From an uncultured Candidatus Saccharibacteria bacterium (lineage in GTDB: Bacteria; Patescibacteriota; Minisyncoccia; Phycocordibacterales; UBA9973): a stretch of 56,400 bases of DNA. Location: assembly GCA_964602465.1 (NCBI GenBank), contig CAZRQQ010000002.1, positions 1 to 56,400 on the forward strand. The letters are read 5' to 3'. Made by a program: the position numbers and the translations under genes. Under the pieces are notes generated by a model that saw only the letters and a program-made list of their open reading frames with translations, was not told the DNA's origin and did no database searches. Of this stretch, positions 17,515 to 55,000 are shown piece after piece (position 1 is the first letter of the stretch; each line of letters begins with the position of its first letter).

Positions 17515-20055
17515 GTGAAATCTTTTAGTAGTTTTTTTAGTACACACAAACGAACACTTGCTGCACTTTTGTTTGGCCTCGCGTTTTCGGCGACTGTTGC
17601 GTTTGCAGTACCACCGAGTACTGAGTACAGTCCAGGCGAGACACTTGATCCAAACTGTGCGCCAGGAGATACCAACTGCGCGGTCATTCCCACCGCGTCT
17701 GCGATCGAAGATGGTGCAGTAGAAATCGCTGACTTTTCGGCAAGCGGCACACCGAGTGCAAGTACGTTTTTGCGTGGAGATAACACATGGGCAACTGTTT
17801 CGGGGAGCGGTACAGTCACGTCATTTGCATTTACCAACGGTGGCGGATTCACTGGCAACGTCAGCAACGCCACCTCAACTCCTACGCTCTCGCTTACACT
17901 TCAAGATGCTGTAGCTGATGGCTCAACTAAGGGTGCTGCAGCATTTACCGCAGCAGATTTTAATGCATCAAGTGGGCTCATTTCTATAGACTATACCAAC
18001 GGTCAGGCAGCATCAGGTTCGACCAAGGGATTCCTTACTTCTGCTGACTGGACGACGTTTAACGGTAAGGAAAGTGCACTCACGTTTTCTATTGGACTTA
18101 CACGTACTACTAATACAATCACCGTTAACACTACACAAAACATTGCCAAACTTTCAAACCTTACTTCAAACGGCTTTATTAAGACATCGGGGAGTGACGG
18201 TACGCTCAGTGTTGATACCAGTACCTATCTTACAGGTAACGAGGCTATTACTCTTTCGGGGGATATATCTGGGAGTGGTACTACCACAATCACAACTACG
18301 ATTGGATCTGGTAAAGTCACGAACACTATGCTTGCTGGCTCGATCACTGCAGCAAAACTCGTAGGAACCGATATTGCAACAGTGGGTACTATCGGTACGG
18401 GTACGTGGCAAGGCACGGTCGTGGGTGCAACCTACGGAGGTACTGGTGTAAACAATGGGTCAAACACGATAACACTTGCGGGCAATCTCGTGACGACTGG
18501 GGCGTTTAATACTACGTTTGCAGCAAGCGCGACGGGGACCTATACTCTCCCTAGTGCGACTTCGACGCTTTTGGCAAACAATCTCGGGATTAGTGGCGGG
18601 TCAACACTGGTCGGAGGAACAGGATCTGGTGAAAACCTCACACTTTCTTCAACGAGTAATGCAACTAAAGGTAAAATCATCTTCGGATCTGCCTCAGCGT
18701 ATGACCAAGTCAACGATCGATTTGGAATTGCACAGACCACCCCATTAGCAAGACTTCATGTGCAGCGTGATGCAATAGGTGCCACCCAAGATGATTCATA
18801 CGGTATCTTGTTGCAAAACTCAACGGCAGCAGCAGCGGGCGCACAGCAGTATTCACCATCGATCGTATTTGCAGGAAATGGATGGAAATCAAGTGCAACT
18901 GCAGCGAGTCAAGATGTACGGTTTCGTATTTATAATAGTCCTGTGCAAGGTGCGGGCTCCGCATCCGGGTTGTTGAATTTTGAGTCAGCACTTAATGGTG
19001 GTGCATACACCACGCTCATGACACTATCAAGTGCACAAGCATTGAGCTTAAACAGTGCCGGAACGATTTTTATTGGATCAGGTCTGGCTTTGACTAATGT
19101 TACCGCTCAAGTACCAACTGTATTTGGTGGCACTGCGGTGAGCTCATCACTTACACTTAAATCAACGAGCGGTGTCGGATCTTCGGACTTCATCCGTTTT
19201 CAGGTCGGCAACAACGGTGCAACTGAAGCAATGCGTATCATCACTTCTGGATTTGTGGGTATTGCCAATACTGCTCCTGGAGTCGCACTCCACATCGGTT
19301 CGTCGTCAACCACTGACGCTACAACACTTCTTCGTCTCCAAGACTCAAACTCTACCTGTAACTTCACTGCAGATTCTGGTGCGCCAACGTGTGGATCTGA
19401 CCGCACCCTCAAGAAAGATATCGAATCCATGGATAATGCCGACCTCCTTGCTCGGGTATCTGCACTCAATCCAGTGACCTATCGATGGCTTACTGATACT
19501 GATGATGCAAAACTCCAGCATGGGTTCATTGCACAAGAAGTAGAAGAACAATTCCCGGAGCTTGTGACCGAGAATGTCTGGGGTGATGGCACCATGCGCA
19601 AATTCCTCAATATTGGCGGTCTCATGCCGTATGCGATCGGTGCGATCAAGCAAATGAATCTCCAGATCGTTGGCATTGCAGATCTAGGCACAACCAACAC
19701 TTGGCGTGATAGCTTACTTGCATGGTTTGGAAATGCAGGCAACGGCATAGAGTCTTTCTTTAGTAAGAAGGTTACGACGAGCGAGCTTTGTGTAGGGGAC
19801 GAGACTGATCAGGTTTGTGTCACCAAAGATCAGCTTCGAACACTCTTGCAGCAGGGGGGAAGTGCATCAGTTGCGCCAATAGTGATTCCAGATCCAGTGC
19901 CAGAGGAGGCTACCGGAGAGACGCCTGAGGAGACACCGGTCGAAGAGACTGTGACCCCAGAACCAGAGGCTATAGAACCTACACCAGAGCCAGAACCGGC
20001 TCCAGAACCCACAGCCCCTGAGGCTCCGGCAGAAGCTCCTGCTCTTACCGAATAA
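17515..20055 (+). CDS. secreted tail-fibre-like surface protein with C-terminal intramolecular chaperone (peptidase S74-type) domain and Pro/Glu/Thr-rich tail
   Basis: N-terminal signal/anchor MKSF...AFSATVAFA. Long Gly/Ser/Thr-rich repetitive body. C-terminal TCGSDRTLKKDIESM...LNPVTYRW....HGFIAQEVEEQFPELV matches the endosialidase/tail-fibre autoprocessing chaperone domain. PEPEPAPEP tail. Confidence 0.7.
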   Translation: MKSFSSFFSTHKRTLAALLFGLAFSATVAFAVPPSTEYSPGETLDPNCAPGDTNCAVIPTASAIEDGAVEIADFSASGTPSASTFLRGDNTWATVSGSGTVTSFAFTNGGGFTGNVSNATSTPTLSLTLQDAVADGSTKGAAAFTAADFNASSGLISIDYTNGQAASGSTKGFLTSADWTTFNGKESALTFSIGLTRTTNTITVNTTQNIAKLSNLTSNGFIKTSGSDGTLSVDTSTYLTGNEAITLSGDISGSGTTTITTTIGSGKVTNTMLAGSITAAKLVGTDIATVGTIGTGTWQGTVVGATYGGTGVNNGSNTITLAGNLVTTGAFNTTFAASATGTYTLPSATSTLLANNLGISGGSTLVGGTGSGENLTLSSTSNATKGKIIFGSASAYDQVNDRFGIAQTTPLARLHVQRDAIGATQDDSYGILLQNSTAAAAGAQQYSPSIVFAGNGWKSSATAASQDVRFRIYNSPVQGAGSASGLLNFESALNGGAYTTLMTLSSAQALSLNSAGTIFIGSGLALTNVTAQVPTVFGGTAVSSSLTLKSTSGVGSSDFIRFQVGNNGATEAMRIITSGFVGIANTAPGVALHIGSSSTTDATTLLRLQDSNSTCNFTADSGAPTCGSDRTLKKDIESMDNADLLARVSALNPVTYRWLTDTDDAKLQHGFIAQEVEEQFPELVTENVWGDGTMRKFLNIGGLMPYAIGAIKQMNLQIVGIADLGTTNTWRDSLLAWFGNAGNGIESFFSKKVTTSELCVGDETDQVCVTKDQLRTLLQQGGSASVAPIVIPDPVPEEATGETPEETPVEETVTPEPEAIEPTPEPEPAPEPTAPEAPAEAPALTE

Positions 20056-35899: not shown

Positions 35900-36034
35900 G
35901 CCGATGATGTATATAATCTTTTATATCATCCACCCTTAGCTCCCCGCCTGCATCAGCTACGCGAAGCATTGCGGGCAGGAGTTGGTAGAGCGCCGAGCTT
36001 ACCGGCGAAGCGAGTGGTATACAGACAAACGAGT

Positions 36035-36108
36035 GGGAGTATAGCTCAGTTGGTTAGAGCACGGAGCTTATACCTCCGCGGTCGATGGTTCGAGTCCATC
36101 TACTCCCA
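36035..36108 (+). tRNA. tRNA-Ile (anticodon UAU)
   Basis: Cloverleaf with acceptor GGGAGTA/TACTCCC, D-arm GCTC..GAGC, anticodon stem CGGAG/CTCCG, loop CTTATAC, T-arm GATGG-TTCGAGT-CCATC. Discriminator A. Confidence 0.7.
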
Positions 36109-36188
36109 CCCGTTTGAATGTGATATCCGAGCGATGCCGGCTCCAAAGGATGACCTCGGTGGTCCAGGCTTTTGTCCATGCACACCCA

Positions 36189-41753: not shown

Positions 41754-43007
41754 TTAATGCATATCCATATCTTCAGTCATATTCATATCAATCTCAATCT
41801 TTTTAAATATCTCTGGGTTTTCATCTCCTGTCACCTCAAGCACAGCCCATGAGCCTTTATTCATTCTTGCTAACGCATGATCTACAAGTAAGTATTTACC
41901 AGGAACATCAACAGTAAACTCTACAATACTTGCACCCCCTGGAAGCACTGCTGTTGTCTGTACATTGCGTTCAATTGAGCCACCAATGTTTGCTTCTGGA
42001 TATACTGTATCGAATATTTCTCCAATCACGTGAAATGATGAGATGAGGTTAACACCGCCATTTCCTATATAGATACGAATCTTGTCTCCAACTTTTGCAG
42101 TTATTCTTGGAGTACTTTCGATTTTACCATTAAAGACGACATAGTTTGGTGTTCCAGCTAAAAGTGCATCTCCATCAAATGGAACAAGTCCTCGTTTTCC
42201 TGTTTTGCCTTCTGTATAAAATTCACCCTGAATCATGTAGAATTCTTTATCTACTTTTGGTAAGGCAATCTTTTGATCTTTTGGATCAACCATAATGAGT
42301 CCGTACTGGCCATGAGAATTGTGTGTACTGACGTTTGGCATAGCACAATGATAAATATACAATCCTGGGTTCAAAGCTTTCCATTGAAATGTCTTAGTCT
42401 CTCCTGGAGCAACATGAGTGATTGATGCTCCACCACCAGGACCGGTCACAGCATGCAGATCAATATTGTGATCATGTAAACTTGTCGGATCGTTAGTTAA
42501 CGATAGCTCAATAGTATCTCCTTCTTTTACTCGTAGCATGGGTCCAGGAACTTGTTTATTGTATGTCCAGTAGTTCATGTATATCCCCGGAGCCATTTCT
42601 GATATAACTTCTTGTGCTCGTAAATGTATGCGAACTATACCATCAGCATCGGGTATTTGCGGTTCACTTGGAACAGAATTCGGGTTGGCGGATATGTCAA
42701 CTATCTTCTCAAAGTTTTTTTCATACATAAAAAACTCTAAAATTTTACTAAAAGGAATAGCAGGTGCAATTCCGCCTGGAGCATGAGAGTGCATAAACAT
42801 TGGCATTGCGAAGTCAGGAGCATATGTACGATTTGATATGAGTCCAGCAAACAGAGCAATCACAAAAAGAGCAACTGGTATGTAAAGCAATTTTTGCTTA
42901 AAAATTGAATGAAAGTGAACCTTTTTCCATATATATCGCACAAGTATGACAAAGGCTATTAACCCAACTATTCCAGATATTATTTCAAAAATGAGATATG
43001 TAAACAT
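41754..43007 (-). CDS. nirK: copper-containing nitrite reductase NirK with N-terminal membrane anchor
   Basis: Type-1/type-2 Cu ligand blocks HDHNIDLHAVTG and YIYHCAMPNVSTHNSHGQYGLIMV match NirK. Two N-terminal TM helices. Confidence 0.8.
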   Translation of the reverse strand: MFTYLIFEIISGIVGLIAFVILVRYIWKKVHFHSIFKQKLLYIPVALFVIALFAGLISNRTYAPDFAMPMFMHSHAPGGIAPAIPFSKILEFFMYEKNFEKIVDISANPNSVPSEPQIPDADGIVRIHLRAQEVISEMAPGIYMNYWTYNKQVPGPMLRVKEGDTIELSLTNDPTSLHDHNIDLHAVTGPGGGASITHVAPGETKTFQWKALNPGLYIYHCAMPNVSTHNSHGQYGLIMVDPKDQKIALPKVDKEFYMIQGEFYTEGKTGKRGLVPFDGDALLAGTPNYVVFNGKIESTPRITAKVGDKIRIYIGNGGVNLISSFHVIGEIFDTVYPEANIGGSIERNVQTTAVLPGGASIVEFTVDVPGKYLLVDHALARMNKGSWAVLEVTGDENPEIFKKIEIDMNMTEDMDMH

Positions 43008-43024
43008 AAAAATTAGTATTTATA

Positions 43025-43396
43025 TTATTTATAAGGTATTTTACAATCCTCAAAACAGTGAGCATCACGGTTCAAGGTGAAATATTTTTCCCGACCAGAC
43101 ACTTTTGCATGTACAGCATTTACTGATTGGAGAACTTTAAGATGATGAGTAATAGTGGGTTGTCTTAGAGACATCTTATTCGTCAATTCTGTAACTGTTT
43201 GACCATTTTTTGATTTACCAAGTATACAAACCAAGTTGTAACGGCTTCTTTCGCCAACAACCTTGAAACAATCTGGACATAATTCCTTTTCGGACATAGA
43301 AGAAATTGGTACCCAGCTTGGGATTGGGTATGTTTTTTCTTGACTTTTATTTTTTATTACAGTCTGATGTATTTTTATATCTTTTTTTGCTTTCAT
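43025..43396 (-). CDS. ArsR/SmtB-family transcriptional regulator
   Basis: Winged-HTH pattern. RYNLVCIL...QTVTELTNKMSLRQPTITHHLKVL. Upstream of nirK in the same orientation. Confidence 0.6.
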   Translation of the reverse strand: MKAKKDIKIHQTVIKNKSQEKTYPIPSWVPISSMSEKELCPDCFKVVGERSRYNLVCILGKSKNGQTVTELTNKMSLRQPTITHHLKVLQSVNAVHAKVSGREKYFTLNRDAHCFEDCKIPYK

Positions 43397-43463
43397 ATAG
43401 ATAAGTATCTATGTTAATATGTATAGACCATTATCAATATAACATAATTAAGAAATAAAAACT

Positions 43464-44759
43464 ATGCCAAACACAGAAAATATTGCATCTTATACTCAAA
43501 ATGTCATCAAACGGGATGGTTCCATCCAGTCTTTTGATACAAAAAAGATAATCCAAGCAATCTACAAGGCGATGCTCTCTGTCGATAAGGGAAGCTTGGA
43601 TGACGCGAGATTTGTTGTCAAAAGTGTACTTCTTGATCTTGAAAAAAATCATGACCCTGAAGAAAAATACCCGAGCGTTGAGAAGATTCAAGATATTGTT
43701 GAGCAAGAATTAATGAAAAAAGAATTCTTTGATGTTGCAAAGTCATATATTCTATATAGACAGCAAAGAGCAGAGATGCGTAAACGTGACATTTTTAAAA
43801 AAAGAACTAATCTAAAGCCTTACGAATATCCCGAACTATATGAATATGTAAGCGCAATACGACATTCATACTGGATTCATACAGAATTTAATTTCACTAG
43901 CGACATACAGGACTTCAAAGTAAATGTAAATGAAAAAGAGAGAAATGCAATAAAAAACGCAATGCTTGCTATCGCGCAGATCGAAGTTACTGTTAAAACA
44001 TTTTGGGGTGATATATATAAAAAAATGCCGAAGCCTGAAATTGGTGCTGTCGGATTTACTTTTGCTGAAAGCGAAGTTAGGCACATGGATGCGTACGCTC
44101 ATTTGCTTGAGATACTTGGATTAAATGAAGAATTTAAAAAAATAAAAGAAATTCCTCCACTTATTGATCGTGTCAGATATCTTGAAAAAGCAATAAAAAA
44201 TTCTCGAAGTGAGGATCCTAGAGAATATGCTCAGGCCATTTTGCTTTTTTCTCTTTTTATTGAACATGTTTCATTATTTTCTCAATTTCTTATTATTATG
44301 TCATTTAATAAACATAGGAATATTTTCAAGGGAATATCAAATGCTGTCGAAGCAACTTCTAAAGAAGAACAAATACACGGGCTCTTTGGTATCGATGTTA
44401 TCAACGTTATAAAGAGTGAGCATCCAGAATGGTTTGATAAAGATTATGAGAATACTATTGTCGAGTCCTGCAAGGAAGCATTCGAATCAGAAAAAAAGGT
44501 TGTTGATTGGATACTTGAAATGGGGGAAATCGATTTTATACCAAAAAATGTAGTGCTTGAATTCGTTAAGAATAGATTTAACAACTCTCTTGCAAGTATC
44601 GGTATCTCTAGAATATTTGAAGTTGATAAAAATCTTTTGGAAAAAACTGATTGGTTTGATGACGAAGTTATTGCAACGAAGCACGGAGATTTCTTCGTGA
44701 AAAGGTCGATTAATTACAATAAGAGAAATCAAAGCGTCACAGGTGACGATTTGTTCTAA
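43464..44759 (+). CDS. nrdB: class I ribonucleotide reductase beta (radical-generating) subunit with N-terminal ATP-cone
   Basis: N-terminal VIKRDGSIQSFDTKKIIQAIYKA (ATP-cone). Ferritin-like di-iron ligand motifs E..H (ESEVRH, EEQIH). Confidence 0.75.
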   Translation: MPNTENIASYTQNVIKRDGSIQSFDTKKIIQAIYKAMLSVDKGSLDDARFVVKSVLLDLEKNHDPEEKYPSVEKIQDIVEQELMKKEFFDVAKSYILYRQQRAEMRKRDIFKKRTNLKPYEYPELYEYVSAIRHSYWIHTEFNFTSDIQDFKVNVNEKERNAIKNAMLAIAQIEVTVKTFWGDIYKKMPKPEIGAVGFTFAESEVRHMDAYAHLLEILGLNEEFKKIKEIPPLIDRVRYLEKAIKNSRSEDPREYAQAILLFSLFIEHVSLFSQFLIIMSFNKHRNIFKGISNAVEATSKEEQIHGLFGIDVINVIKSEHPEWFDKDYENTIVESCKEAFESEKKVVDWILEMGEIDFIPKNVVLEFVKNRFNNSLASIGISRIFEVDKNLLEKTDWFDDEVIATKHGDFFVKRSINYNKRNQSVTGDDLF

Positions 44760-44767
44760 TTAAATAT

Positions 44768-46492
44768 ATGAAATGGCTCAATGAACAGAGTAAATTATTT
44801 TTAGCAAAAGGATATCTCGCAAAAGGAGTAACCGCTGAGGAAAGAATACGTGAGATCGCAAACGTAGCAGAACGTATTCTTAACAAAGAGGGTTTTGCAG
44901 ATAAATTTTATGCATACATGTCAGAGGGATACTATTCTCTCGCATCTCCTGTCTGGTCAAATTTCGGACTAACTAAAGGTTTTCCTATCAGTTGTTTTTC
45001 TTCTTATGTTGGAGATGACATGGGGCAGATACTTTTTACCGAAGCAGAAGTTGGTATGATGAGTAAATATGGCGGAGGTACTGCTGGTTATTTTGGTGAT
45101 CTGCGTCCTCGTGGAGCGAGTATTAAAGATAATGGTATTTCTTCTGGAGCGGTTCATTTTATGAGACTTTTTGAAACAATGGTAAATGTTGTAAGTCAGG
45201 GTTCTGTCAGGCGTGGTCATTTTGCTCCATATCTGCCACTAGAACACAAAGACATTCACGAGTTTTTAGAAATCGGCACAGAAGGAAATCCTATCCAAGA
45301 ATTGACCTATGGTGTTACTGTTACGGATAAATGGCTAAATGATATGATCGATGGAGATCAAGAAAAAAGAGATATTTGGGCGAAAGTATTACAAAGAAGA
45401 AGCCAGATAGGATATCCATATATTTTATTTACTGATACTGTGAACAGAAACACGGTAGATGTTTACAAAGACAAAAATCTAAAGATACACGCAAGTAACT
45501 TATGCTCGGAAATATTACTTCCTTCTAATGAAAATTGGTCAGTTGTTTGTGATCTTTCCTCTATGAATCTTCTTTATTATAATGAATGGAAAGACACAGA
45601 TGCAGTAGAGACACTTGTTTATTTTTTAGATGCAGTAATGAGCGATTTTATTAGTAGATTGGAAGATTTTCGCGACAGTGGAGAAACGCATAAAAAACAA
45701 GCATTTCTTTTCATGGAACGTGCATACAATTTCGCAAAAGCAAACCGAGCACTGGGTCTTGGTGTCCTTGGATGGCACTCTCTTTTGCAAAGCAAAATGA
45801 TTCCTCTTGGAAGTACCGAGGCGAATGATCTTAATAAAGAAATATTTAAAGATCTTCATGATCAGTGCTATGCTGCTTCAGAAAAACTTGCAAAGGAATA
45901 CGGTGAACCAGAAATACTTGTAGGATACGGTAGAAGGAACACGACACTCCTTGCTGTTGCTCCTACAACTTCTTCTGCTTTTATCTTAGGACAAGTATCT
46001 CAGAGTATAGAACCTTTGTGGTCAAACTGTTATGTCAAAGATATTGATAAAATGAAAATCACTATTAAAAACCCTTTACTTGAAAAACTTTTAGAAGAAA
46101 AAGGTCTAAATACCAGAGAGATTTGGCAAGGCATAAGAGAAAATGACGGTTCAGTACAACATCTTTCAGAAATTACAGATAAAGAGAAAGAGATTTTTAA
46201 AACATTTGCTGAGATTGACCAAAAAGTAATTATTGAACAGGCTGCTGAAAGACAAAAATACATAGATCAAGGACAATCGCTTAATCTCATGATCGATCCT
46301 TCAATTCCAGCAAAAGAAGTAAATGCTTTATATCTTCATGCATGGAAGCGTGGTATCAAAACATTTTATTATCAACACAGCATGAATGCTGCTCAGCAGT
46401 TTGGGCGTAAAAAACTTAAAGAAGTTAATTTAAAACAAAAAGAGGTCGATCAAGATGAATCTAAAAATGTATGCATTTCGTGCGAAGCATAA
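44768..46492 (+). CDS. nrdA: class I ribonucleotide reductase alpha subunit (short, no ATP-cone)
   Basis: Active-site NLCSEILLP motif. C-terminal Cys pair (CISC). 574 aa. Confidence 0.8.
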   Translation: MKWLNEQSKLFLAKGYLAKGVTAEERIREIANVAERILNKEGFADKFYAYMSEGYYSLASPVWSNFGLTKGFPISCFSSYVGDDMGQILFTEAEVGMMSKYGGGTAGYFGDLRPRGASIKDNGISSGAVHFMRLFETMVNVVSQGSVRRGHFAPYLPLEHKDIHEFLEIGTEGNPIQELTYGVTVTDKWLNDMIDGDQEKRDIWAKVLQRRSQIGYPYILFTDTVNRNTVDVYKDKNLKIHASNLCSEILLPSNENWSVVCDLSSMNLLYYNEWKDTDAVETLVYFLDAVMSDFISRLEDFRDSGETHKKQAFLFMERAYNFAKANRALGLGVLGWHSLLQSKMIPLGSTEANDLNKEIFKDLHDQCYAASEKLAKEYGEPEILVGYGRRNTTLLAVAPTTSSAFILGQVSQSIEPLWSNCYVKDIDKMKITIKNPLLEKLLEEKGLNTREIWQGIRENDGSVQHLSEITDKEKEIFKTFAEIDQKVIIEQAAERQKYIDQGQSLNLMIDPSIPAKEVNALYLHAWKRGIKTFYYQHSMNAAQQFGRKKLKEVNLKQKEVDQDESKNVCISCEA

Positions 46493-46497
46493 AACTA

Positions 46498-46895
46498 TGG
46501 AAAAACACATTGAAGAATTCATACTATCCGCTGAAGCTAAAGCTTTGGCGACACATTCGAACGATAATATAAATGTCGTTCCTGTTTCCTCGATTAAAGT
46601 AATGGGAGGTAAAATTTGGCTTATCAATTATTTTATGGATAAGACACTCGCTAATATATTAGAAAATAAAAGCGTGGCACTTGTATGCTGGAGAAAGATG
46701 ATGGGGTATCAAATAAAAGGAATAGTATCTTATGTTACTTCCGGGCAAGACTTTGATGAAGCTGCAAAATGGATAAAATCAATATTACCGGATAGAGTTG
46801 TTAAGGGGTTGATAATTCTTACCCCTAATGAAATACACGACATATCTCCGACAAAAGACACCAAAGAAAAAATCTCAGCTGAACAAAATCTTTGA
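46498..46895 (+). CDS. pyridoxamine 5'-phosphate oxidase-like FMN-binding split-barrel protein (start at MEKHIEEF)
   Basis: Size, and a split-barrel-like pattern with an N-terminal V.VVPV and a GK.W motif. The ORF-track start at 46455 overlaps nrdA. Confidence 0.5.
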
Positions 46896-46948
46896 TGAAG
46901 CCCAACACTAATCTCTATTAATTTATTATCTCACTAAACAATAGATAA

Positions 46949-47407
46949 CTACTTATCCATAAGTATAATTTTTTTATTCGCCAAACAGATTTTACTCTTC
47001 AAGCACCCAAGCAATTCTCGTTTTTCAATATCGTCTCCTTCTTTCAGTATATACTTTGCGTATCCTCGTATATCAATATCAGGGATACTAATTTTTTCTT
47101 TAGTTCCTACTAGAAACTTTTGCATTTTAGAAAAGCGTTCAACATCTTCTTTTATCTTTTCTTTGATTTGGATCTCATTGAGATTTACATTTTCGATAAG
47201 TAATTGAAATTGCTTCAATAATTCTTTCTCTTCAATAGCACCACACTTACAATCTGGATCTCTGGCTCTTGTGCATCTATAGTAAACATAACGATGTACA
47301 TTTCCATTCTTCTGCTTCTTAAATTTCTCGTCAGCGGTGATGCCTGACTCGCACAGTCCGCAAGTCATCATTTTAGTGAAAGCAAATTCTTTGTTTTCAA
47401 CTCTCAA
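46949..47407 (-). pseudogene. truncated large serine recombinase (C-terminal zinc-ribbon + coiled-coil portion only)
   Basis: CGLCESGITADEKFKKQKNGNVHRYVYYRCTRARDPDCKCGAIEEKELL is the recombinase zinc beta-ribbon domain. The N-terminal resolvase and recombinase domains are absent. Confidence 0.6.
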
Positions 47408-47514
47408 GACATTACTTTTAATCTGCTCTTGAACCGATTATTCTTGGGAAGCACGAACAAGCCGCTCTAGAAGCGGTTACTGGCGGCGAGTGGAAAAAGT
47501 ATACTCGAGTCGCT

Positions 47515-48240
47515 ATGGCTGCACTTGGCGGTATCCCCTGGGTGGGAAGCGTTCTAAGTGCGGCTGCAACACTTTCTGCTGAAAACGAACAAGGCAAAAC
47601 GAATCAAATAATGTTTTTGTGGGTGCAGGAACACGAACAAAAATTCAAAGAGCTAGGAGTGACCTTGAATGGTATTTTTGAGAGATTTAGTTCGTTTGGA
47701 GATGAAGTAAATGCAAGATTGGAATCAACTGAGTACCTCACTCTTGTTAGAAAAACTTTCCGACTATGGGATCAGGCAGAAACACATGAAAAGAAGGAAA
47801 TGTTCAAAAAGTTGATTACTAATTCAGGGGTGATTACTTTGGCCCAAGATGATCTTGTCAGACTCTTTCTGGAATGGATTGAAAAATATCACGAGTTCCA
47901 TTTTGCTGTAATCAGAGAAATCTATACGACTCGCGGTATCACTCGTGGTGGCATTTGGGAAAGAATCAGAGGAGAAGAACCTCGGGAAGATTCAGCAGAA
48001 ACAGACTTGTTCAAATTACTTATACGCGACCTAAGTACGGGCGGCGTAATTCGTCAGGAGAAAGAAACCAATTCCCTAGGACAATTTGTAAGAAAGACTC
48101 GTTCAAAAGGAACTAGTCGTAGTTCTGTGTATGAGTCAGCATTTGAAGACACTAAACCATATGTTTTGACTGAATTAGGAGCGCAGTTTCTTCATTACGT
48201 TATGGAGGATATTGCACCTCAAATAGGAAGTGGAAGCTAA
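47515..48240 (+). CDS. hypothetical protein
   Basis: 241-aa ORF. No recognisable domain. Confidence 0.4.
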   Translation: MAALGGIPWVGSVLSAAATLSAENEQGKTNQIMFLWVQEHEQKFKELGVTLNGIFERFSSFGDEVNARLESTEYLTLVRKTFRLWDQAETHEKKEMFKKLITNSGVITLAQDDLVRLFLEWIEKYHEFHFAVIREIYTTRGITRGGIWERIRGEEPREDSAETDLFKLLIRDLSTGGVIRQEKETNSLGQFVRKTRSKGTSRSSVYESAFEDTKPYVLTELGAQFLHYVMEDIAPQIGSGS

Positions 48241-48249
48241 AAAGTAATT

Positions 48250-48579
48250 ATGAAAAATAACGCACATCTCGGAGAGACAAAAGAACAGAGATTAAAAAGG
48301 TTTAATGAAAATGGTCCGTATGAAGTGATAGCTACTATCACTAATTCAATGGCTAATCATTTAGTAAATGAATTGCGAACCGTTTTTTATAATCCACCAA
48401 ATTATCAAACATCGCTGATGTTTCTAGGTACTCATTCAATTGCTCTTACTATTGCTCATGGTTTCTGGAACAAGGGAGGAGAAAATGGATACAAGCTTTT
48501 CTTAGAACACTTTATAAGGGTATATAAGAACCGTTTACTTTTTTCTAACAGGCGTTACAATACGAGCATTATTATCTAA
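48250..48579 (+). CDS. hypothetical protein
   Basis: 109-aa ORF. No recognisable domain. Confidence 0.35.
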   Translation: MKNNAHLGETKEQRLKRFNENGPYEVIATITNSMANHLVNELRTVFYNPPNYQTSLMFLGTHSIALTIAHGFWNKGGENGYKLFLEHFIRVYKNRLLFSNRRYNTSIII

Positions 48580-51500
48580 ATGGGGCAAACCCGTATGTTT
48601 ATGAACAACCGAAAAGCGCGACAAACACTTCTTACAATCATCTCTACTTTTACGAAAAAGCTAGCGTTATCGACGCTAGCTTTTTCGCTTCTTTTTGGAT
48701 CAGTACCATTTGCATTTGCACAAGAGGTGTCTGAGTCTCAAAATACACCACTAACTGAATCTACAGAAACACCATCATCCACAATACCAACAGGAGATGG
48801 GAGTACTTCTTCAGGGCAATTGCTCCCATCTACAACAGATCAAACCGATACTGTAATTTCTCCTGAAAATATTCAACCCGCAATTGCCCTTGCGGGGCAA
48901 TCCGGGGTCGGTAATGCCGGCACTACTCCAGACAACGATGTGACTGGATTGACACACCAGCAACTCCCTAATGTAAACGATAGTGGTATCCTCTCGTATA
49001 ACTACCCCTTGACCATTGCGCCTGGACGACTAGGACTAACACCCAGTCTTTCGCTTTCTTATAACAACAGAAACCGTGACGACGGCGTCTTTGGTGTTGG
49101 TTGGTCACTTTCTATTCCATACATCGAACGAACCAACAAAAAAGGTATTGATACTACCTATACCGATAACTACTTTAGTTCAAGCCAAGCAGGAGAACTT
49201 GCCCTTGTTTCGGGTACGACGTATGCCCCACGTGTAGAAAATGGTGAATTTTCAAGTTACGATTTCGACGGAACGAAATGGACTGTTGTTGATAAAAAGG
49301 GTGTTACCTATAAATACGGTGTACAAGCTGCAACTCGCCAGGATGACCCGGGTAATGCAAGTAGAGTATATCGATGGTATCTCGAAGAAGTCCGAGATAC
49401 AAACAACAACTACATCACCTATGAATACTACAAAGATGCAGGACAGATTTATCCTTTAAAAATCACATATACAGGTAACGGGGTTACAGCGGGTGTCCTT
49501 ACAGTACATTTTGTCCGAACTGCACGAACAAATCCAATCATTTCATATGCTACTGGTTTTGGGGTAATAACAAACTATCAAATCACAGAAGTTCGTAATG
49601 AAATAAACAGTGTTTGGACGAGAAAGTATACACTCGCATATACGACTGCAGACAATACAAAAAATCTCCTGATCAATACAATCACTGAATCTGGACAGGA
49701 TGAGAGTGCGGTTGTCACAACACTTCCTGCAACTGACTTTGATTACAAAACATCAGATCCGAACTGGACGTATAACTCTACATACAATCTCCCAGAGACC
49801 TTCTATACAACGAGCGGTAAAGATAGAGGGCTTCGTATTGATGACATGACAGGAGACGGCATGGCTGACATTACCTGTCATAATGGCGCCTCAACAGGAA
49901 ACTGCGCCCAAACAGGAGCAATTTCTTGGAAAAACAATGGCGCTGGGTGGACTGCACTAGGACCATGGGATTACCCATCAATGGGAGGTGTACCGTTCAT
50001 GACCACTGAACGATTTACTGATAGCACATATGCAGATGCTGGGCTTCGAATCTTTGATGTAAACGGTGATGGAATGGCCGATTTGGTACGATCTGATGGT
50101 ACGAGTGGGACTGGTCCATATGTCTATCTCGCCAACGGCACAAATGGTTGGACATATTCGTCAACATGGAATTTCCCTCCGATTAACTTTGTAACAAATG
50201 GTGCCGACAATGGTATGCGTATCGCAGACATCAACGGCGACGGCTTGCCAGATGTGGTGTGTGCCGCTCGAGGAAATAGCTGTGCCGGAAATAGTGGAAT
50301 GATCTGGATAAATACAGGATCAGGGTTTGTAGATAAAACAACATCATGGTCAATGCCAAAGATTGGCGGAGATCCACTTGCTCAAAGTGAAGCATTTACC
50401 GACAGTAGTTTCCAAGACCTGTCACTCCGATTGCTCGATGTAAACGGTGACGGACTTGCTGATTTGGTACGAGCATCACAAAGTGCACTTTATACGTATC
50501 TCAATAATGGTGTAAACGGATGGATATATACTGCAAGTTGGAATATGCCGATCCCGTTCTACGACAGTGCAAACAATGATTATGGTGTTCGAATGGCTGA
50601 TATCAATGGTGATAATCTTCCAGATATTCTCTGCCATACTGCAAATGCAGGTGCAAGTAACTGTAGTCAACTAGGTCCTGTGTTTTATATCAACACTGGT
50701 TCAGGTTGGGTAGGAGCAAGTTGGAACTTCCCGAATATCGGTGGCATTGTTACCAATAATACGGAAGCATTTACTTCACCTTCATACCAGGATACCTCAC
50801 TCCGTATTGTTGATATAAACGGTGACGGACTCAGTGACCTGGTACGAGGAGCAGACGGTTTTCTATATACCTATATCAATAACAATAGTGTAAAGGCCGA
50901 TCAGCTTACTAAGATAACCTATCCATCTGGTGGCTCAAGTACTATCACGTACAAACCAGCGCAGTTTTATCGAGACGGATCAAACAATGCGCTCAACCCA
51001 AAACTTCCGATGGTACTTGATGTGGTTTCGCAGATAGTGACCGATGATGCATTTGGTGGTACCGCTCAGACGACAAGCTATACCTATGAAAAAGGGTTAT
51101 ACTACACCGCAGCAGTCAATGATCGAAAGTTTGCAGGATTTAATATTGTCACTAAAACTGACGGTGCAGGTAATATCACAAAAACATACTATCACCAAGC
51201 AGATACCACGGACACCTCACTCGGTGAATACAATGATGAGTTCTCTAAGATCGGAAAAGTGTATCGAGTTGAGCAGTATGATAATGCGGGCAATCTCTAT
51301 CTAGTCACTGTAAACAAATGGGATAAATACAATCAAGCAACCGATCGTGACTTTGTGAAGCTTGCTCGACAAACAACACTTGCCTATGACGGTAATGGAA
51401 CGCACAAGGATACCGCAACGGAGTACACCTATGACAACACGAACGGTTCAATATTAACTCAAACTGAATGGGGCGAAGTGGCTGGAGCGACCGATGGATC

Positions 51501-54500
51501 ATTTAGTGATACAGGAACTGACAAACGTGTGACCACAAATCTATATGCAACCAATGGTACCACCAAAGTTGTCGCTGTCTACAACAGTACTGTTACTGAT
51601 CAGTCGGCAGCAAAAGTACGAGAGGATAAGTACTACTACGATACACTCGCGTATGGCTCAGTATCTAAGGGTAATCAAACTAAGAATGAAAAATGGAAGA
51701 CAGCAAGCACCTATGTCAATACTCAGAAAACATATAATGCAACCTACGGAAATGTTGCAACAGAAACTGACGAACGTGGTAAGGTAACGACCTATACGAC
51801 GTATGATACGTATAATCTGTATCCAATTACTATCACCAATCCGCTCTCACAGACTACGCAATATCTCTATGACTACTCGCTTGGTAAACCAAAACAAGTC
51901 ACCGATCAAAATGGATTTGTCTACAAGACTACCTATGACGGACTCGATCGTGTAAAACTCATTCAAATTCCTGATTTCACTACACCCTACAGCGCTATAA
52001 CGAAAACTTCGTATACGTACACTGATACGTCGGGTGCGGTGCGTATCCAAAAAAGTGATTACCTCGATGGTACTGTGATTGCAGATACCTATCAGTACCT
52101 CGATGGTCTCAATCGCATCATTCAAGAACGCAAGAAGTCAGAAACATCGCCGACCTATAACATCACAAACACGATGTACAACAGTGTTGGATTGGTGCTC
52201 AAGCGTTCAATTCCACACACAGGTACCGGTGCATCACGAAGCACTCCTTCAGCGACAACATATCTCTACATCAACTACACGTATGATCCTCTCCAACGCG
52301 TGCTCACTCAGTCGGATGCGATTGGTACTACAACCTATGCATATGATGACTGGAAGACGACGGTTACCGATCGTAACGGCAAGGTCAAGAAGTACTATAC
52401 CGATGCCTACAATAATCTCATAAAAGTTGATGAGATCAATGGCGCTTCAACGTATACCACCAACTATGAGTGGAACCTCAACGCAAAGCTTACCAAAGTC
52501 ACCGATGCATCAAGCAACATCCGTAACTTCACCTATGACGGTCTCGGCCGACGCCTTACAGCACAAGATCTTCACGCTTCAGCAGATGCGACATTTGGTA
52601 CTTGGACGTATACCTACGATGATGCAGGAAACTTGACCCAGACTATTAGTCCTCGATCGCTCACGACCAATTACACCTACAACGATATCAATCAACAACT
52701 CACCGAAGATACGACTGGTGTGGCAGGAACGGAAATCACGTATACGTATGGCGGTTGCACAAACGGTACTGGAAAACTCTGTACAGTTACAATGACAAGC
52801 GGCGCAAACACGTCATACACATATGATTCAAATGGCAACCTTGCAAGCGAGATCAAGACGGTCAATAGCAATGCGTACACAACGTCATATACCTACGATC
52901 GACAAGGAAATATCGTTACAGTTACTTATCCTGATGGTGCACAAGTAAAATACACCTATAACGTTGAAAATCTCCCTGAAAAGATTGAACGAAAGGAAAG
53001 CGGTGGTGCATTCACAAATGTGATCTCAAACTTCGATTACAACGCAGCAAGCCTCATCACAACCCAAGCCTATCCAAATACTGTTACAACGACAAACACC
53101 TACGATCAGGCGAAGCTCTACAGAATGACTCGTCGTCTGACGCAAAATACAGTACCCACTAAAATGCTCGATCTTAACTACACCTACGATAATGAAGGAA
53201 ATATTACCCAGGTAATTGATTCGTCAAATACAACTACTTCGAAGACTGCTAACTATGCCTATGACGATGTATATCGTATGTTATCGGCAACGATAACGAC
53301 AGTGTCATCAGGAACGACTGCATATACGCACACTTACACGTATGATGCACTCGGCAATATTCTCACAGGTCCAATTGGTACTTACCTCTACCAAGGAAAC
53401 ACAGGAGTGCTCACTGCAAACCCTCATGCGGCAACCTCGATCAATGGGGTCACCTACACGTACGATGCAGATGGTAATCTCACCAGCAACGGTACGCTTG
53501 CAAATACATGGAACTATAAAGACCAGCTCACACAGACTGTAGTCGGAGGTGTAACGATCAACGATTACTATGACCACAACAGTGATCGTGTCTGGCACAA
53601 GGTCGGTACGGCAAACAACTACTATCCAAACAAGTACTACAATGTTGATTCAACAGGAAAGAAGACCAAGCAGATCTACGCAGGCGATCAACTTGTTGCA
53701 ACAGTTGAAACGGTTGGTACTACCGTCACTCCGTACTACAACCATGTTGATCAGGTCAACTCTGTGACTGCGGTGACAAACGGCACAGGCGCATCGGTTG
53801 CAACGCTCGACTACTTCCCGTACGGTAACCAGCGTATCTCAAGTGGTACGTATACTTCACAACGACAGTACATTGGACAGGTTTATGACACCAATGCACA
53901 GCTCAACTATCTCAATGCGCGATATCTCAAATCTAATATTGGAAAGTTCATTAGTGAAGATCCAATGTTCTGGAGTATGACTGATACTGCACTCAGAAAT
54001 CCTCAATATACAAACTCATATTCATATGGAAATAATAATCCGATCACTCTAAGTGATCCAACAGGTAAATGCATCTGGGACGGTTGTATCGCAGAAGGAA
54101 TGCTCCTAGCAGCGGCTACTCAAGCTATTGCACCACTTCTGACGACTGCTTATGTTACTGATTATGTTGGGACACAGTTAAATCCCACTGTTTCTACATC
54201 AGTGAAGTCACAGGCAAATAAGCAAGCTCTAGATGCTCTTGCCTTAGGAGTCGGGATTTCTATAAGTATGCCAAATGCAAACTTCTCTAGGGTAGCTCCA
54301 TCAGTAGCTCCTTCTACGTCTCGAGCATCAGTTCTACAAGCAAACAAAGCAGCTGGTGCTGCATTTGAAACTAGCGAACTAAAAGCTATTACTAAATCAT
54401 TTCCAGTAACTCAAACTCAGTTGACCATCAAAACACCGAGCGGTATTACTACTAGAATGGATATTATAGCTAGAGATTCTTTGGGAAATATTTGTCTATT

Positions 54501-54666
54501 CGAGTGTAAGTCATCTATTACAGCTCCTCTAACAAAAAACCAGTCTCTCGCATTTCCGGAAATACAAAAATCTGGAGGAATGATTATGGGAAATGGTAAG
54601 CCTGGATTTCCTGGCAATACGTTAATCCCTCCTACAAGAGTTAATATATTAAGACCTGTAAAATAA
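48580..54666 (+). CDS. secreted RHS-repeat polymorphic toxin of Tc-toxin BC-like architecture (SpvB-like region, FG-GAP repeats, YD/RHS shell, RHS core with DPxG, variable C-terminal toxin domain)
   Basis: Signal peptide. SpvB-like segment GVFGVGWSLSIPYIERT. Five FG-GAP-like repeats (D(V/I)NGDG.(A/P)D(L/V)V). Many YD repeats (YTYD..GN). RHS core ...ARYLKSNIGKFISEDP. DPTG at 54054-54065 followed by a ~200-aa AT-rich tail. Confidence 0.85.
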   Translation: MGQTRMFMNNRKARQTLLTIISTFTKKLALSTLAFSLLFGSVPFAFAQEVSESQNTPLTESTETPSSTIPTGDGSTSSGQLLPSTTDQTDTVISPENIQPAIALAGQSGVGNAGTTPDNDVTGLTHQQLPNVNDSGILSYNYPLTIAPGRLGLTPSLSLSYNNRNRDDGVFGVGWSLSIPYIERTNKKGIDTTYTDNYFSSSQAGELALVSGTTYAPRVENGEFSSYDFDGTKWTVVDKKGVTYKYGVQAATRQDDPGNASRVYRWYLEEVRDTNNNYITYEYYKDAGQIYPLKITYTGNGVTAGVLTVHFVRTARTNPIISYATGFGVITNYQITEVRNEINSVWTRKYTLAYTTADNTKNLLINTITESGQDESAVVTTLPATDFDYKTSDPNWTYNSTYNLPETFYTTSGKDRGLRIDDMTGDGMADITCHNGASTGNCAQTGAISWKNNGAGWTALGPWDYPSMGGVPFMTTERFTDSTYADAGLRIFDVNGDGMADLVRSDGTSGTGPYVYLANGTNGWTYSSTWNFPPINFVTNGADNGMRIADINGDGLPDVVCAARGNSCAGNSGMIWINTGSGFVDKTTSWSMPKIGGDPLAQSEAFTDSSFQDLSLRLLDVNGDGLADLVRASQSALYTYLNNGVNGWIYTASWNMPIPFYDSANNDYGVRMADINGDNLPDILCHTANAGASNCSQLGPVFYINTGSGWVGASWNFPNIGGIVTNNTEAFTSPSYQDTSLRIVDINGDGLSDLVRGADGFLYTYINNNSVKADQLTKITYPSGGSSTITYKPAQFYRDGSNNALNPKLPMVLDVVSQIVTDDAFGGTAQTTSYTYEKGLYYTAAVNDRKFAGFNIVTKTDGAGNITKTYYHQADTTDTSLGEYNDEFSKIGKVYRVEQYDNAGNLYLVTVNKWDKYNQATDRDFVKLARQTTLAYDGNGTHKDTATEYTYDNTNGSILTQTEWGEVAGATDGSFSDTGTDKRVTTNLYATNGTTKVVAVYNSTVTDQSAAKVREDKYYYDTLAYGSVSKGNQTKNEKWKTASTYVNTQKTYNATYGNVATETDERGKVTTYTTYDTYNLYPITITNPLSQTTQYLYDYSLGKPKQVTDQNGFVYKTTYDGLDRVKLIQIPDFTTPYSAITKTSYTYTDTSGAVRIQKSDYLDGTVIADTYQYLDGLNRIIQERKKSETSPTYNITNTMYNSVGLVLKRSIPHTGTGASRSTPSATTYLYINYTYDPLQRVLTQSDAIGTTTYAYDDWKTTVTDRNGKVKKYYTDAYNNLIKVDEINGASTYTTNYEWNLNAKLTKVTDASSNIRNFTYDGLGRRLTAQDLHASADATFGTWTYTYDDAGNLTQTISPRSLTTNYTYNDINQQLTEDTTGVAGTEITYTYGGCTNGTGKLCTVTMTSGANTSYTYDSNGNLASEIKTVNSNAYTTSYTYDRQGNIVTVTYPDGAQVKYTYNVENLPEKIERKESGGAFTNVISNFDYNAASLITTQAYPNTVTTTNTYDQAKLYRMTRRLTQNTVPTKMLDLNYTYDNEGNITQVIDSSNTTTSKTANYAYDDVYRMLSATITTVSSGTTAYTHTYTYDALGNILTGPIGTYLYQGNTGVLTANPHAATSINGVTYTYDADGNLTSNGTLANTWNYKDQLTQTVVGGVTINDYYDHNSDRVWHKVGTANNYYPNKYYNVDSTGKKTKQIYAGDQLVATVETVGTTVTPYYNHVDQVNSVTAVTNGTGASVATLDYFPYGNQRISSGTYTSQRQYIGQVYDTNAQLNYLNARYLKSNIGKFISEDPMFWSMTDTALRNPQYTNSYSYGNNNPITLSDPTGKCIWDGCIAEGMLLAAATQAIAPLLTTAYVTDYVGTQLNPTVSTSVKSQANKQALDALALGVGISISMPNANFSRVAPSVAPSTSRASVLQANKAAGAAFETSELKAITKSFPVTQTQLTIKTPSGITTRMDIIARDSLGNICLFECKSSITAPLTKNQSLAFPEIQKSGGMIMGNGKPGFPGNTLIPPTRVNILRPVK

Positions 54667-54667
54667 T

Positions 54668-55000
54668 ATGTCAGTTGATCAGAAAAAAGTAATAGACGCA
54701 ATAAGTATTGATGAGAAATCAAATGAAGTTTTACTGTTTATTTTTGACCACCACACATGGGATGACCCAAAGAGTGATCATGCACTTATCTTGCAAGATA
54801 AAATAAATGATTATCTGTCTTATGTTGAAAGTGGAGAAATATATGAAAACAATCCACAATACAAAAACAAGCCCTTAGTTATAATTGTTAAAGGAAAATA
54901 TCCATTAAGTGAATTTGGTAAAAGCTTTTATGAAAAAGCAACCTCAATAGTGCAATGGGCTGGCTTTGATCTGAGATTTGAACATAGCTCTACAAAATAA
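54668..55000 (+). CDS. putative cognate immunity protein
   Basis: 110-aa ORF starting 2 nt after the toxin's stop codon. AT-rich like the toxin's C-terminal module. Confidence 0.45.
   Translation: MSVDQKKVIDAISIDEKSNEVLLFIFDHHTWDDPKSDHALILQDKINDYLSYVESGEIYENNPQYKNKPLVIIVKGKYPLSEFGKSFYEKATSIVQWAGFDLRFEHSSTK

Follow-up and report, generated by a model that had tools for sequence, protein, structure and literature searches.

The DNA analysed here, referred to as the window, is the whole 56.4-kb stretch formed by positions 1 to 56,400 of contig CAZRQQ010000002.1, and the genes of interest are a long open reading frame (ORF) near its end and the short ORF that follows it. The long ORF (48580–54666, + strand) has an ATG start, encodes 2028 amino acids (aa) before a TAA stop, and is intact, with no frameshifts over 6 kb. 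From the ORF list and domain profiles, it was assigned as the gene of a TcdB/TcaC-type Rhs polymorphic toxin. The short ORF (54668–55000, + strand) encodes a 110-aa protein of the DUF6572 family (PF20212), which is the predicted cytoplasmic cognate immunity protein. A previous sequence-only reading had proposed an RHS polymorphic toxin, the N-terminal architecture of which resembles TcB/TcC. This was borne out by the SpvB, FG-GAP, midN, RHS_repeat and Rhs-core profiles, all of which match at levels well above chance, including the two on which the proposal hung (SpvB, with an E-value (E) of 2e-17, and the Rhs core, with E 3e-13).

Domain architecture of the toxin

All features of the window described in this and the following three sections are on the + strand. 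The toxin begins with a predicted Sec signal peptide (aa 1–47, 48580–48720), recognised by inspection and hydropathy from its basic n-region, the hydrophobic core LALSTLAFSLLFGSVPF and, at aa 45–48, an A-F-A/Q cleavage site; the N terminus has a single strong hydrophobic peak, at about aa 37. The true start may be M1, M6 or M8. An exact-sequence look-up of the 2028-aa protein returned no identical entry, and a different start call in the database is possible. The signal peptide is followed by a low-complexity linker rich in T, S, P, Q and G according to a composition count (aa 48–130, 83 aa; 48721–48969), which has no domain match.

The SpvB/TcaC N-terminal domain was matched over aa 135–288 (48982–49443; PF03534), and the YenB and SpvB chains in the PDB align to aa 131–208. 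The peptide that had suggested an SpvB-like region, GVFGVGWSLSIPYIERT, is aa 169–185. This domain is followed by an FG-GAP/integrin-like beta-propeller (49840–50847; PF13517, FG-GAP_3, E 8e-19; PF01839, FG-GAP, E 6e-15). It was found that the propeller has six D-x-x-G-D-G blades, with motifs at aa 421, 493, 550, 620, 674 and 745, and not the five that had been counted from the peptides DVNGDGMADLVR (aa 493), DINGDGLPDVV (aa 550), DVNGDGLADLVR (aa 620), DINGDNLPDIL (aa 674) and DINGDGLSDLVR (aa 745); the additional blade is DDMTGDGMADI, aa 421–431. Every peptide quoted in the sequence-only reading was located in the 2028-aa ORF.

A TcdB_toxin_midN domain (aa 732–872, 50773–51195; PF12256, E 6e-21) leads into the RHS/YD-repeat shell (aa ~880–1744, 51217–53811), which was matched in four stretches by PF05593 (E 4e-16) and also by TIGR01643 (YD_repeat_2x, E 2e-11), and in which the YD dipeptide occurs 20 times from aa 900 to aa 1744. 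Rhs and teneurin-like shells in the PDB align to aa 1235–1830, the Rhs shells with E 5e-15. The shell is followed by the Rhs-associated core, an aspartyl autoprotease module (aa 1745–1829, 53812–54066; TIGR03696), the profile match of which ends exactly at a DPTG motif.

The same architecture is present in a relative of 2032 aa (P0116), which is 35% identical to the toxin over the full length and has an equivalent N terminus, ending FAQEV. Another relative, P0182, is 41% identical over the N-terminal half and, according to its annotation, belongs to a Ca. Paceibacterota metagenome-assembled genome (MAG). Relatives are labelled by NCBI as SpvB/TcaC or RHS proteins.

The autoprotease core and the region beyond it

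An Arg/Asp/Asp aspartyl autoprotease has been demonstrated experimentally in RhsA, with D1324 and D1346 and the motif PxxxxDPxG (PMC8765631). In the alignment of the present Rhs core (A4), R1781, D1794 and D1826-P-x-G1829, the counterparts of these residues, are invariant, and the motif of the toxin reads P-ITLS-D1826-P-T-G1829. The core peptide quoted previously, ARYLKSNIGKFISEDP, is aa 1780–1795, and DPTG is aa 1826–1829, after which 199 residues remain. The autocleavage site is predicted from the motif to lie at or just after G1829-K1830; the residue after the glycine of DPTG is Lys, instead of W, L or F.

The sequence-only reading had described a tail of about 200 aa and left its identity blank. 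The length was correct, and the cargo beyond DPTG (~199 aa) was resolved here into a hydrophobic pre-toxin linker of ~84 aa (aa 1830–1913, 54067–54318; hydropathy and alignment) and a 115-aa PD-(D/E)xK nuclease domain. The linker is rich in Ala and Gly, has one hydrophobic segment with a hydropathy peak of 1.56 at aa 1845, and is semi-conserved in three relatives (P0001, P0002 and P0004), with no Pfam match; a role in membrane entry is possible.

In one relative, L161, the Rhs core is closely similar to that of the toxin up to DPQGK, where an unrelated Gly-rich tail begins, and two small membrane-protein genes are present downstream in place of DUF6572. Therefore, the C-terminal region beyond DPxG is variable, as in polymorphic toxins. 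At L161 (10001–17311), two genes separated by 228 nucleotides (nt) were called, one for a TcB-like part of 975 aa and one for an Rhs/TcC-like part of 1384 aa; the split either is real, making these a BC pair, or comes from a frameshift in the assembly. The L161 locus is surrounded by genes for an integrase, an OLD-family nuclease and anti-restriction proteins.

The C-terminal nuclease domain

The C-terminal toxin domain (aa 1914–2028, 54319–54663) was assigned to the PD-(D/E)xK (restriction-endonuclease-fold) superfamily. The isolated tail had no match in Pfam at E<=10, any Tox-REase model in Pfam included, and its identity came from a profile and structure. Homologous domains were compared in two alignments, one of nine toxin-domain sequences (A1) and one of 27 rows, each with a paired toxin, linker and DUF6572 protein (A2). 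In A1, residues E17, D48, E62-C-K64 and N74-Q75 of the 115-aa core are invariant (E1930, D1961, E1975-x-K1977 and N1987-Q1988 in full-length numbering), and in A2, D48, E62 and K64 are invariant and E17 nearly so. The domain has the alpha-beta-beta-beta-alpha-beta core fold of the superfamily and its catalytic pattern, D ... (D/E)-x-K on strands 2 and 3 with a Glu on helix 1. The toxin domain would therefore be expected to cut nucleic acid, with DNA a likelier substrate than RNA.

The Tox-REase-1 family has been given the signature E, D, ExK, Q (Zhang et al. 2012; PMC3482391). The residues of the present domain agree with this signature, in a comparison made with the published description only, and the immunity partner differs. 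The recorded partners of Tox-REase-1 and Tox-REase-6 are the all-alpha Imm49 or Imm-PA2201, whereas the partner here is DUF6572.

The domain at first appeared to be rare, because a word-indexed search yielded eight relatives, but this impression was overturned by an exhaustive profile search, in which 1,210 cluster representatives were found at E<=1e-3 and 286 at E<=1e-30. In the 150 matches listed, the domain is at the C terminus. The carriers include SpvB/FG-GAP/midN/RHS proteins, RHS-only proteins, CdiA proteins with haemagglutinin repeats (Fil_haemagg), a protein with an extracellular contractile injection system (eCIS) core, and Bacillus WXG100-type substrates of type VII secretion (T7SS). 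Therefore, because a single domain is found on many types of carrier, it is a mobile polymorphic-toxin module.

An example of the last type is BALH_RS27570 of Bacillus thuringiensis plasmid pALH1 (NC_008598.1), which has the same C-terminal nuclease domain, with 45% identity, and, as here, is followed by a DUF6572 gene, in this case BALH_RS27575 (annotated as 'DUF6572 domain-containing protein') after a gap of 12 nt. Unlike the present toxin, it is a 302-aa T7SS substrate (annotated as 'WXG100 family type VII secretion target') and not an Rhs cocoon.

The DUF6572 gene downstream of the toxin

The 110-aa ORF begins 1 nt past the TAA stop of the toxin gene, and its product is a full-length DUF6572 protein (E 7e-31, 107.2 bits, relative to a cut-off of 27), residues 1–106 of which align to positions 1–104 of the 106 in the model. 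It has no signal peptide. Exact-sequence matches to the DUF6572 protein were present in a 3.3-kb contig in ENA and in the 56,400-bp NCBI contig that the window represents in full.

To evaluate how regularly the two genes occur together, the DNA downstream of related toxin domains was inspected. A homologous ORF beginning MSI(D/E)Q was present in all seven of the first relatives that had inspectable downstream DNA. When 73 metagenomic loci with the toxin domain were fetched and the 72 toxin domains with >=330 nt of downstream DNA were counted, a DUF6572 ORF on the same strand was found in 70 of these 72 independent loci, at a median gap of 14 nt. The toxin and DUF6572 genes also lie side by side on plasmid pALH1 of B. 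thuringiensis and on megaplasmids of Ralstonia. In a plasmid collection, DUF6572 was found in 117 records, mostly Ralstonia megaplasmids, and the toxin domain in only 31, which suggests that many DUF6572 copies either belong with another toxin or are orphan immunity genes.

The pairwise identities of the toxin domains and of the DUF6572 proteins are strongly correlated (Mantel r 0.89; 41 non-identical pairs), a value that was reached in none of 2000 permutations. The mean identity was 44% for DUF6572 relative to 56% for the toxin, and so DUF6572 is the more divergent of the two. The sequence-only reading had offered the downstream ORF as an immunity candidate, and with a full-length DUF6572 protein that follows the toxin domain in nearly all loci counted, this has become a strong candidate.

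Some related loci contain tandem DUF6572 genes, or an orphan toxin C-terminal region (toxin-CT) with its own DUF6572 gene (L001 2676–3377, L091–L093, L120 3375–4909, L135 and L150). These look like the arrays of displaced cassettes that are typical of Rhs and contact-dependent growth inhibition (CDI) loci.

Comparison with Tc toxins and other Rhs systems

In Tc toxins, the propeller is the gate that docks onto TcA. The present toxin resembles the Tc BC cocoon (YenB/YenC2, PDB 4igl; Photorhabdus TcdB2-TccC3) in having SpvB-N, a propeller gate, midN and an RHS cocoon, as well as an Rhs-core aspartyl autoprotease for release of an encapsulated hypervariable C-terminal region. It differs in being one fused polypeptide with a Sec signal, in the failure to find TcA and midC, in a nuclease cargo with a cognate immunity gene, which Tc loci do not have, and in a host that is a monoderm-like ultra-small bacterium and not an entomopathogen. 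The description 'Tc-toxin BC-like' in the sequence-only reading therefore stands as an architectural likeness and not as membership of the Tc family, because no TcA was found in the window or beside three relatives, midC was undetected and an immunity gene is present.

The evidence on the partner subunits was as follows. The statement that no TcA-like translocator is present in the window was upheld: the window contains no ORF of TcA size, and besides the toxin none that is TcA-like or >900 aa. TcA and components of type VI secretion (T6SS) and of T7SS were sought among all large ORFs of the window, and only housekeeping genes and SecY were found. By the neighbourhood criterion of Song et al. 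2021, a tcA gene is expected at <10 kb (PMC7861908); neither a TcA-like gene nor a T6SS or T7SS gene was found within 10 kb of three relatives (L160–L162). TcdB_midC (PF12255) had no match in the toxin at E<=0.01, whereas midN was matched at E 6e-21; a distant relative, P0190, carries midC.

These results bear on the alternative that the protein is a genuine Tc BC-fusion subunit, the propeller of which docks onto a pentameric TcA encoded elsewhere, with the cargo injected into host cells that are eukaryotic or otherwise large. The docking function of Tc propellers would fit such a role, as would the TcB hallmark domains (SpvB, FG-GAP propeller and TcdB_midN), the alignment of YenB to the N terminus and the existence of BC fusions, for example in B. 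pseudomallei (PMC7861908). We nevertheless consider this alternative quite improbable, given the lack of TcA in the 56.4-kb contig and near the three relatives, the undetected midC, and a conserved cytoplasmic immunity gene, a kind of gene that Song et al. 2021 found in none of 1,608 true Tc loci (PMC7861908). Moreover, the toxin/immunity cassette is also found on antibacterial CdiA and T7SS carriers. A tcA gene of ~7.5 kb would presumably also weigh heavily on the ~1-Mb genome of a Patescibacteria bacterium.

The class to which the toxin corresponds most closely is the TcdB/TcaC class of Zhang et al. 2012 (Biol Direct 7:18; PMC3482391), defined by a signal peptide, SpvB, an integrin-like propeller and RHS. 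The present toxin has exactly this order of domains, and it likewise ends in a variable toxin region and is followed by an immunity gene; toxins with a restriction-endonuclease (REase) fold (Tox-REase-1) are among the cargo of the class. In contrast, Patescibacteria are absent from the phyletic list given in 2012 (PMC3482391).

RhsA of Pseudomonas protegens (PDB 7q97; Gunther et al. 2022, PMC8765631) is likewise an Rhs cocoon with a PxxxxDPxG autocleavage motif, and its C-terminal toxin domain, itself only a predicted DNase, and that of the present toxin have an R-x-D...GN..F-E-x-K...LTKNQ core in common (profile E 0.003). Unlike the present toxin, RhsA is a T6SS effector that has prePAAR, transmembrane domain (TMD) and PAAR regions and an N-terminal plug, and not SpvB and a propeller; the toxin domains are distantly related. 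No PAAR or related match was found in Pfam or NCBIfam, the N terminus being a signal peptide and SpvB, and therefore the present toxin is not a T6SS Rhs effector.

For delivery that does not involve TcA, the nearest functional analogy is provided by WapA-type toxins. WapA of Bacillus subtilis was reportedly described in 2013 as a Sec-dependent, Gram-positive Rhs/YD contact-dependent toxin. Proteins of this type are YD/Rhs proteins that have a signal peptide and a nuclease toxin at the C terminus and are encoded next to an immunity gene, in cells with neither an outer membrane nor T6SS. WapA has wall-binding repeats and is not known to have the SpvB, propeller and midN domains, and its toxins are tRNases of other folds.

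Genomic context

The EF-G encoded in the window is 88% identical to that of a Ca. Paceibacterota MAG and 80–82% identical to those of Ca. Nomurabacteria MAGs. Therefore, the host belongs to the Patescibacteria (candidate phyla radiation, CPR), in the Paceibacteria group, and this placement is compatible with the guess of the sequence-only reading that the bacterium has a small genome and is host-associated. The window contains genes for EF-G, EF-Tu, a ribosomal-protein/SecY cluster, tmRNA, FtsH, RecG and a class I ribonucleotide reductase; besides the toxin, the large ORFs encode EF-G, a Peptidase_S74 protein, RecG, an SPFH/Band 7-domain protein and FtsH.

The GC content is ~0.35 at 42000–48000 and ~0.45–0.50 elsewhere in the window, and the toxin gene is just downstream of this low-GC stretch. 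A fragment of a serine-recombinase zinc-ribbon domain is encoded just upstream of the toxin operon (46949–47407, − strand). The low GC content and the recombinase fragment suggest a variable or acquired region. Two ORFs, 47515–48240 (241 aa) and 48250–48579 (109 aa), are arranged head-to-tail, run into the start codon of the toxin gene and were considered as parts of the system. Neither matched a family in Pfam or NCBIfam or had homologs beside related toxins, and so they were not counted among its conserved parts.

The setting of the gene is also relevant to the alternative that the protein is mainly a surface adhesin or a teneurin-like attachment protein, with which an episymbiont would bind its host cell by means of the shell and propeller, the C-terminal domain being vestigial. 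Patescibacteria attach to host cells, the teneurin-like proteins 9pt5 and 9ifo align to the shell, and the association of the gene with the low-GC stretch and the recombinase fragment may be counted in the same direction. However, the catalytic residues of the autoprotease and of the nuclease are all intact and invariant, the immunity gene is intact and tightly coupled to the toxin gene by the 1-nt gap, and a 6-kb ORF has been kept free of frameshifts, all of which make an adhesin with a vestigial C terminus highly improbable.

Several other features were observed in the window. The ribonucleotide reductase is encoded at 43464–44759 and 44768–46492, with an N-terminal ATP-cone on the NrdB small subunit (PF03477, E 1e-23), whereas the large subunit is short (574 aa) and without an ATP-cone match; this is an unusual arrangement that puts allosteric activity control on the radical-generating subunit. 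A tRNA-Ile gene with the anticodon TAT (UAU) is located at 36034–36111. In most bacteria, AUA is decoded by a lysidine-modified CAU tRNA. The 846-aa ORF at 17515–20055, in the ribosomal-protein/SecY region, has a C-terminal Peptidase_S74 domain (endosialidase/tail-spike intramolecular chaperone) and may encode a fibre-like surface protein. At the contig end, a LOOT RNA motif (RF03000; 56300–56400) was matched with 51.7 bits, relative to a gathering score of 46.4, and is interrupted by the end.

Discussion

We think it probable, on the evidence given above, that this locus, in the chromosome of a Paceibacteria bacterium, comprises the gene of an Rhs polymorphic toxin of the TcdB/TcaC trafficking class, which is exported by Sec and encapsulates itself, and the immunity gene cognate to it. 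In the mechanism that we propose, the signal peptide would route the 2028-aa precursor through SecYEG, and after export a closed cocoon would form outside the cell from SpvB-N, the propeller with its six blades, midN and the RHS repeats, as homology to the YenB/YenC2, TcdB2-TccC3 and RhsA structures suggests. The aspartyl protease of the Rhs core (R1781, D1794 and D1826), the residues of which are conserved, would cut after DPTG, and the ~199-aa cargo would be freed and retained inside the shell. More speculatively, contact with a target bacterium might bring about release of the cargo and its entry into the cytoplasm, perhaps assisted by the ~84-aa hydrophobic linker. The 115-aa PD-(D/E)xK domain would then cleave nucleic acid, more probably DNA than RNA, and in sibling cells the cytoplasmic DUF6572 protein would bind and neutralise the incoming toxin, as near-universal synteny and co-divergence suggest.

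The role of the toxin is likely antagonism between bacteria, directed at competitors or possibly at the host bacterium of an episymbiont. The sequence-only reading had suggested antagonism toward host or competitors, and the competitors are the better-supported half of that suggestion, since a conserved immunity gene argues for bacterial targets.

Some points weigh against the interpretation as a secreted toxin with a cognate immunity protein. Delivery is its weakest link: Tc propellers dock onto TcA, and no TcA-like partner is present within 56 kb. TcA-independent delivery of a cocoon by an episymbiont, possibly with an immunity protein that acts as a nuclease-like decoy, appears rather unlikely to us. 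The signal peptide was assigned by eye only. The Mantel correlation between the toxin and DUF6572 fits co-evolution but may also fit simple co-inheritance. Attempts to assign a fold to DUF6572 gave no fold, and in Streptococcus suis the C-terminal DUF6572 region (EIC-CR) of T7SS immunity proteins is reportedly dispensable for neutralisation and binds EssC, the T7SS ATPase (PMC12558993).

From these last two points, DUF6572 could be an accessory factor associated with the toxin (a chaperone or an export/targeting adaptor) and not an inhibitor, with self-protection either unneeded, as the toxin would be exported by Sec unfolded and then encapsulated, or supplied elsewhere. Yet DUF6572 is here a stand-alone protein of 110 aa and the sole gene in the immunity position, and it tracks the toxin across Sec/Rhs, type V secretion (T5SS) CdiA, T7SS WXG100 and eCIS carriers, a range over which a route-specific adaptor would be unlikely. 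DUF6572 occurs in tandem copies and in orphan cassettes with a toxin-CT, a pattern that immunity genes typically show, and it diverges faster than the toxin and nonetheless stays correlated with it. A study of S. gallolyticus also lists DUF6572 proteins downstream of LXG toxins as immunity candidates. We therefore regard the accessory-factor explanation as improbable. Immunity is preferred because a stand-alone DUF6572 protein tracks the toxin domain across unrelated secretion routes, and the near-universal synteny and co-divergence make it likely that DUF6572 is the cognate immunity protein of this toxin.

The architecture class was already defined in 2012 (PMC3482391), and this is no new kind of system. 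What is new is modest: a Patescibacteria host, a toxin domain without a Pfam match and a near-obligate pairing with DUF6572. No paper devoted to Rhs or Tc toxins of CPR/Patescibacteria was found in the literature collection that was searched.

The annotation gain is a widespread PD-(D/E)xK polymorphic-toxin domain, with ~1,200 cluster representatives, that was matched by no Pfam model. DUF6572 gains a specific predicted function, as a near-obligate downstream partner across Rhs, CdiA, T7SS and eCIS carriers. For the Patescibacteria/CPR, which lack T6SS-type machinery and the interactions of which with host and neighbour cells are poorly understood, the locus provides an experimentally tractable toxin/antitoxin pair.

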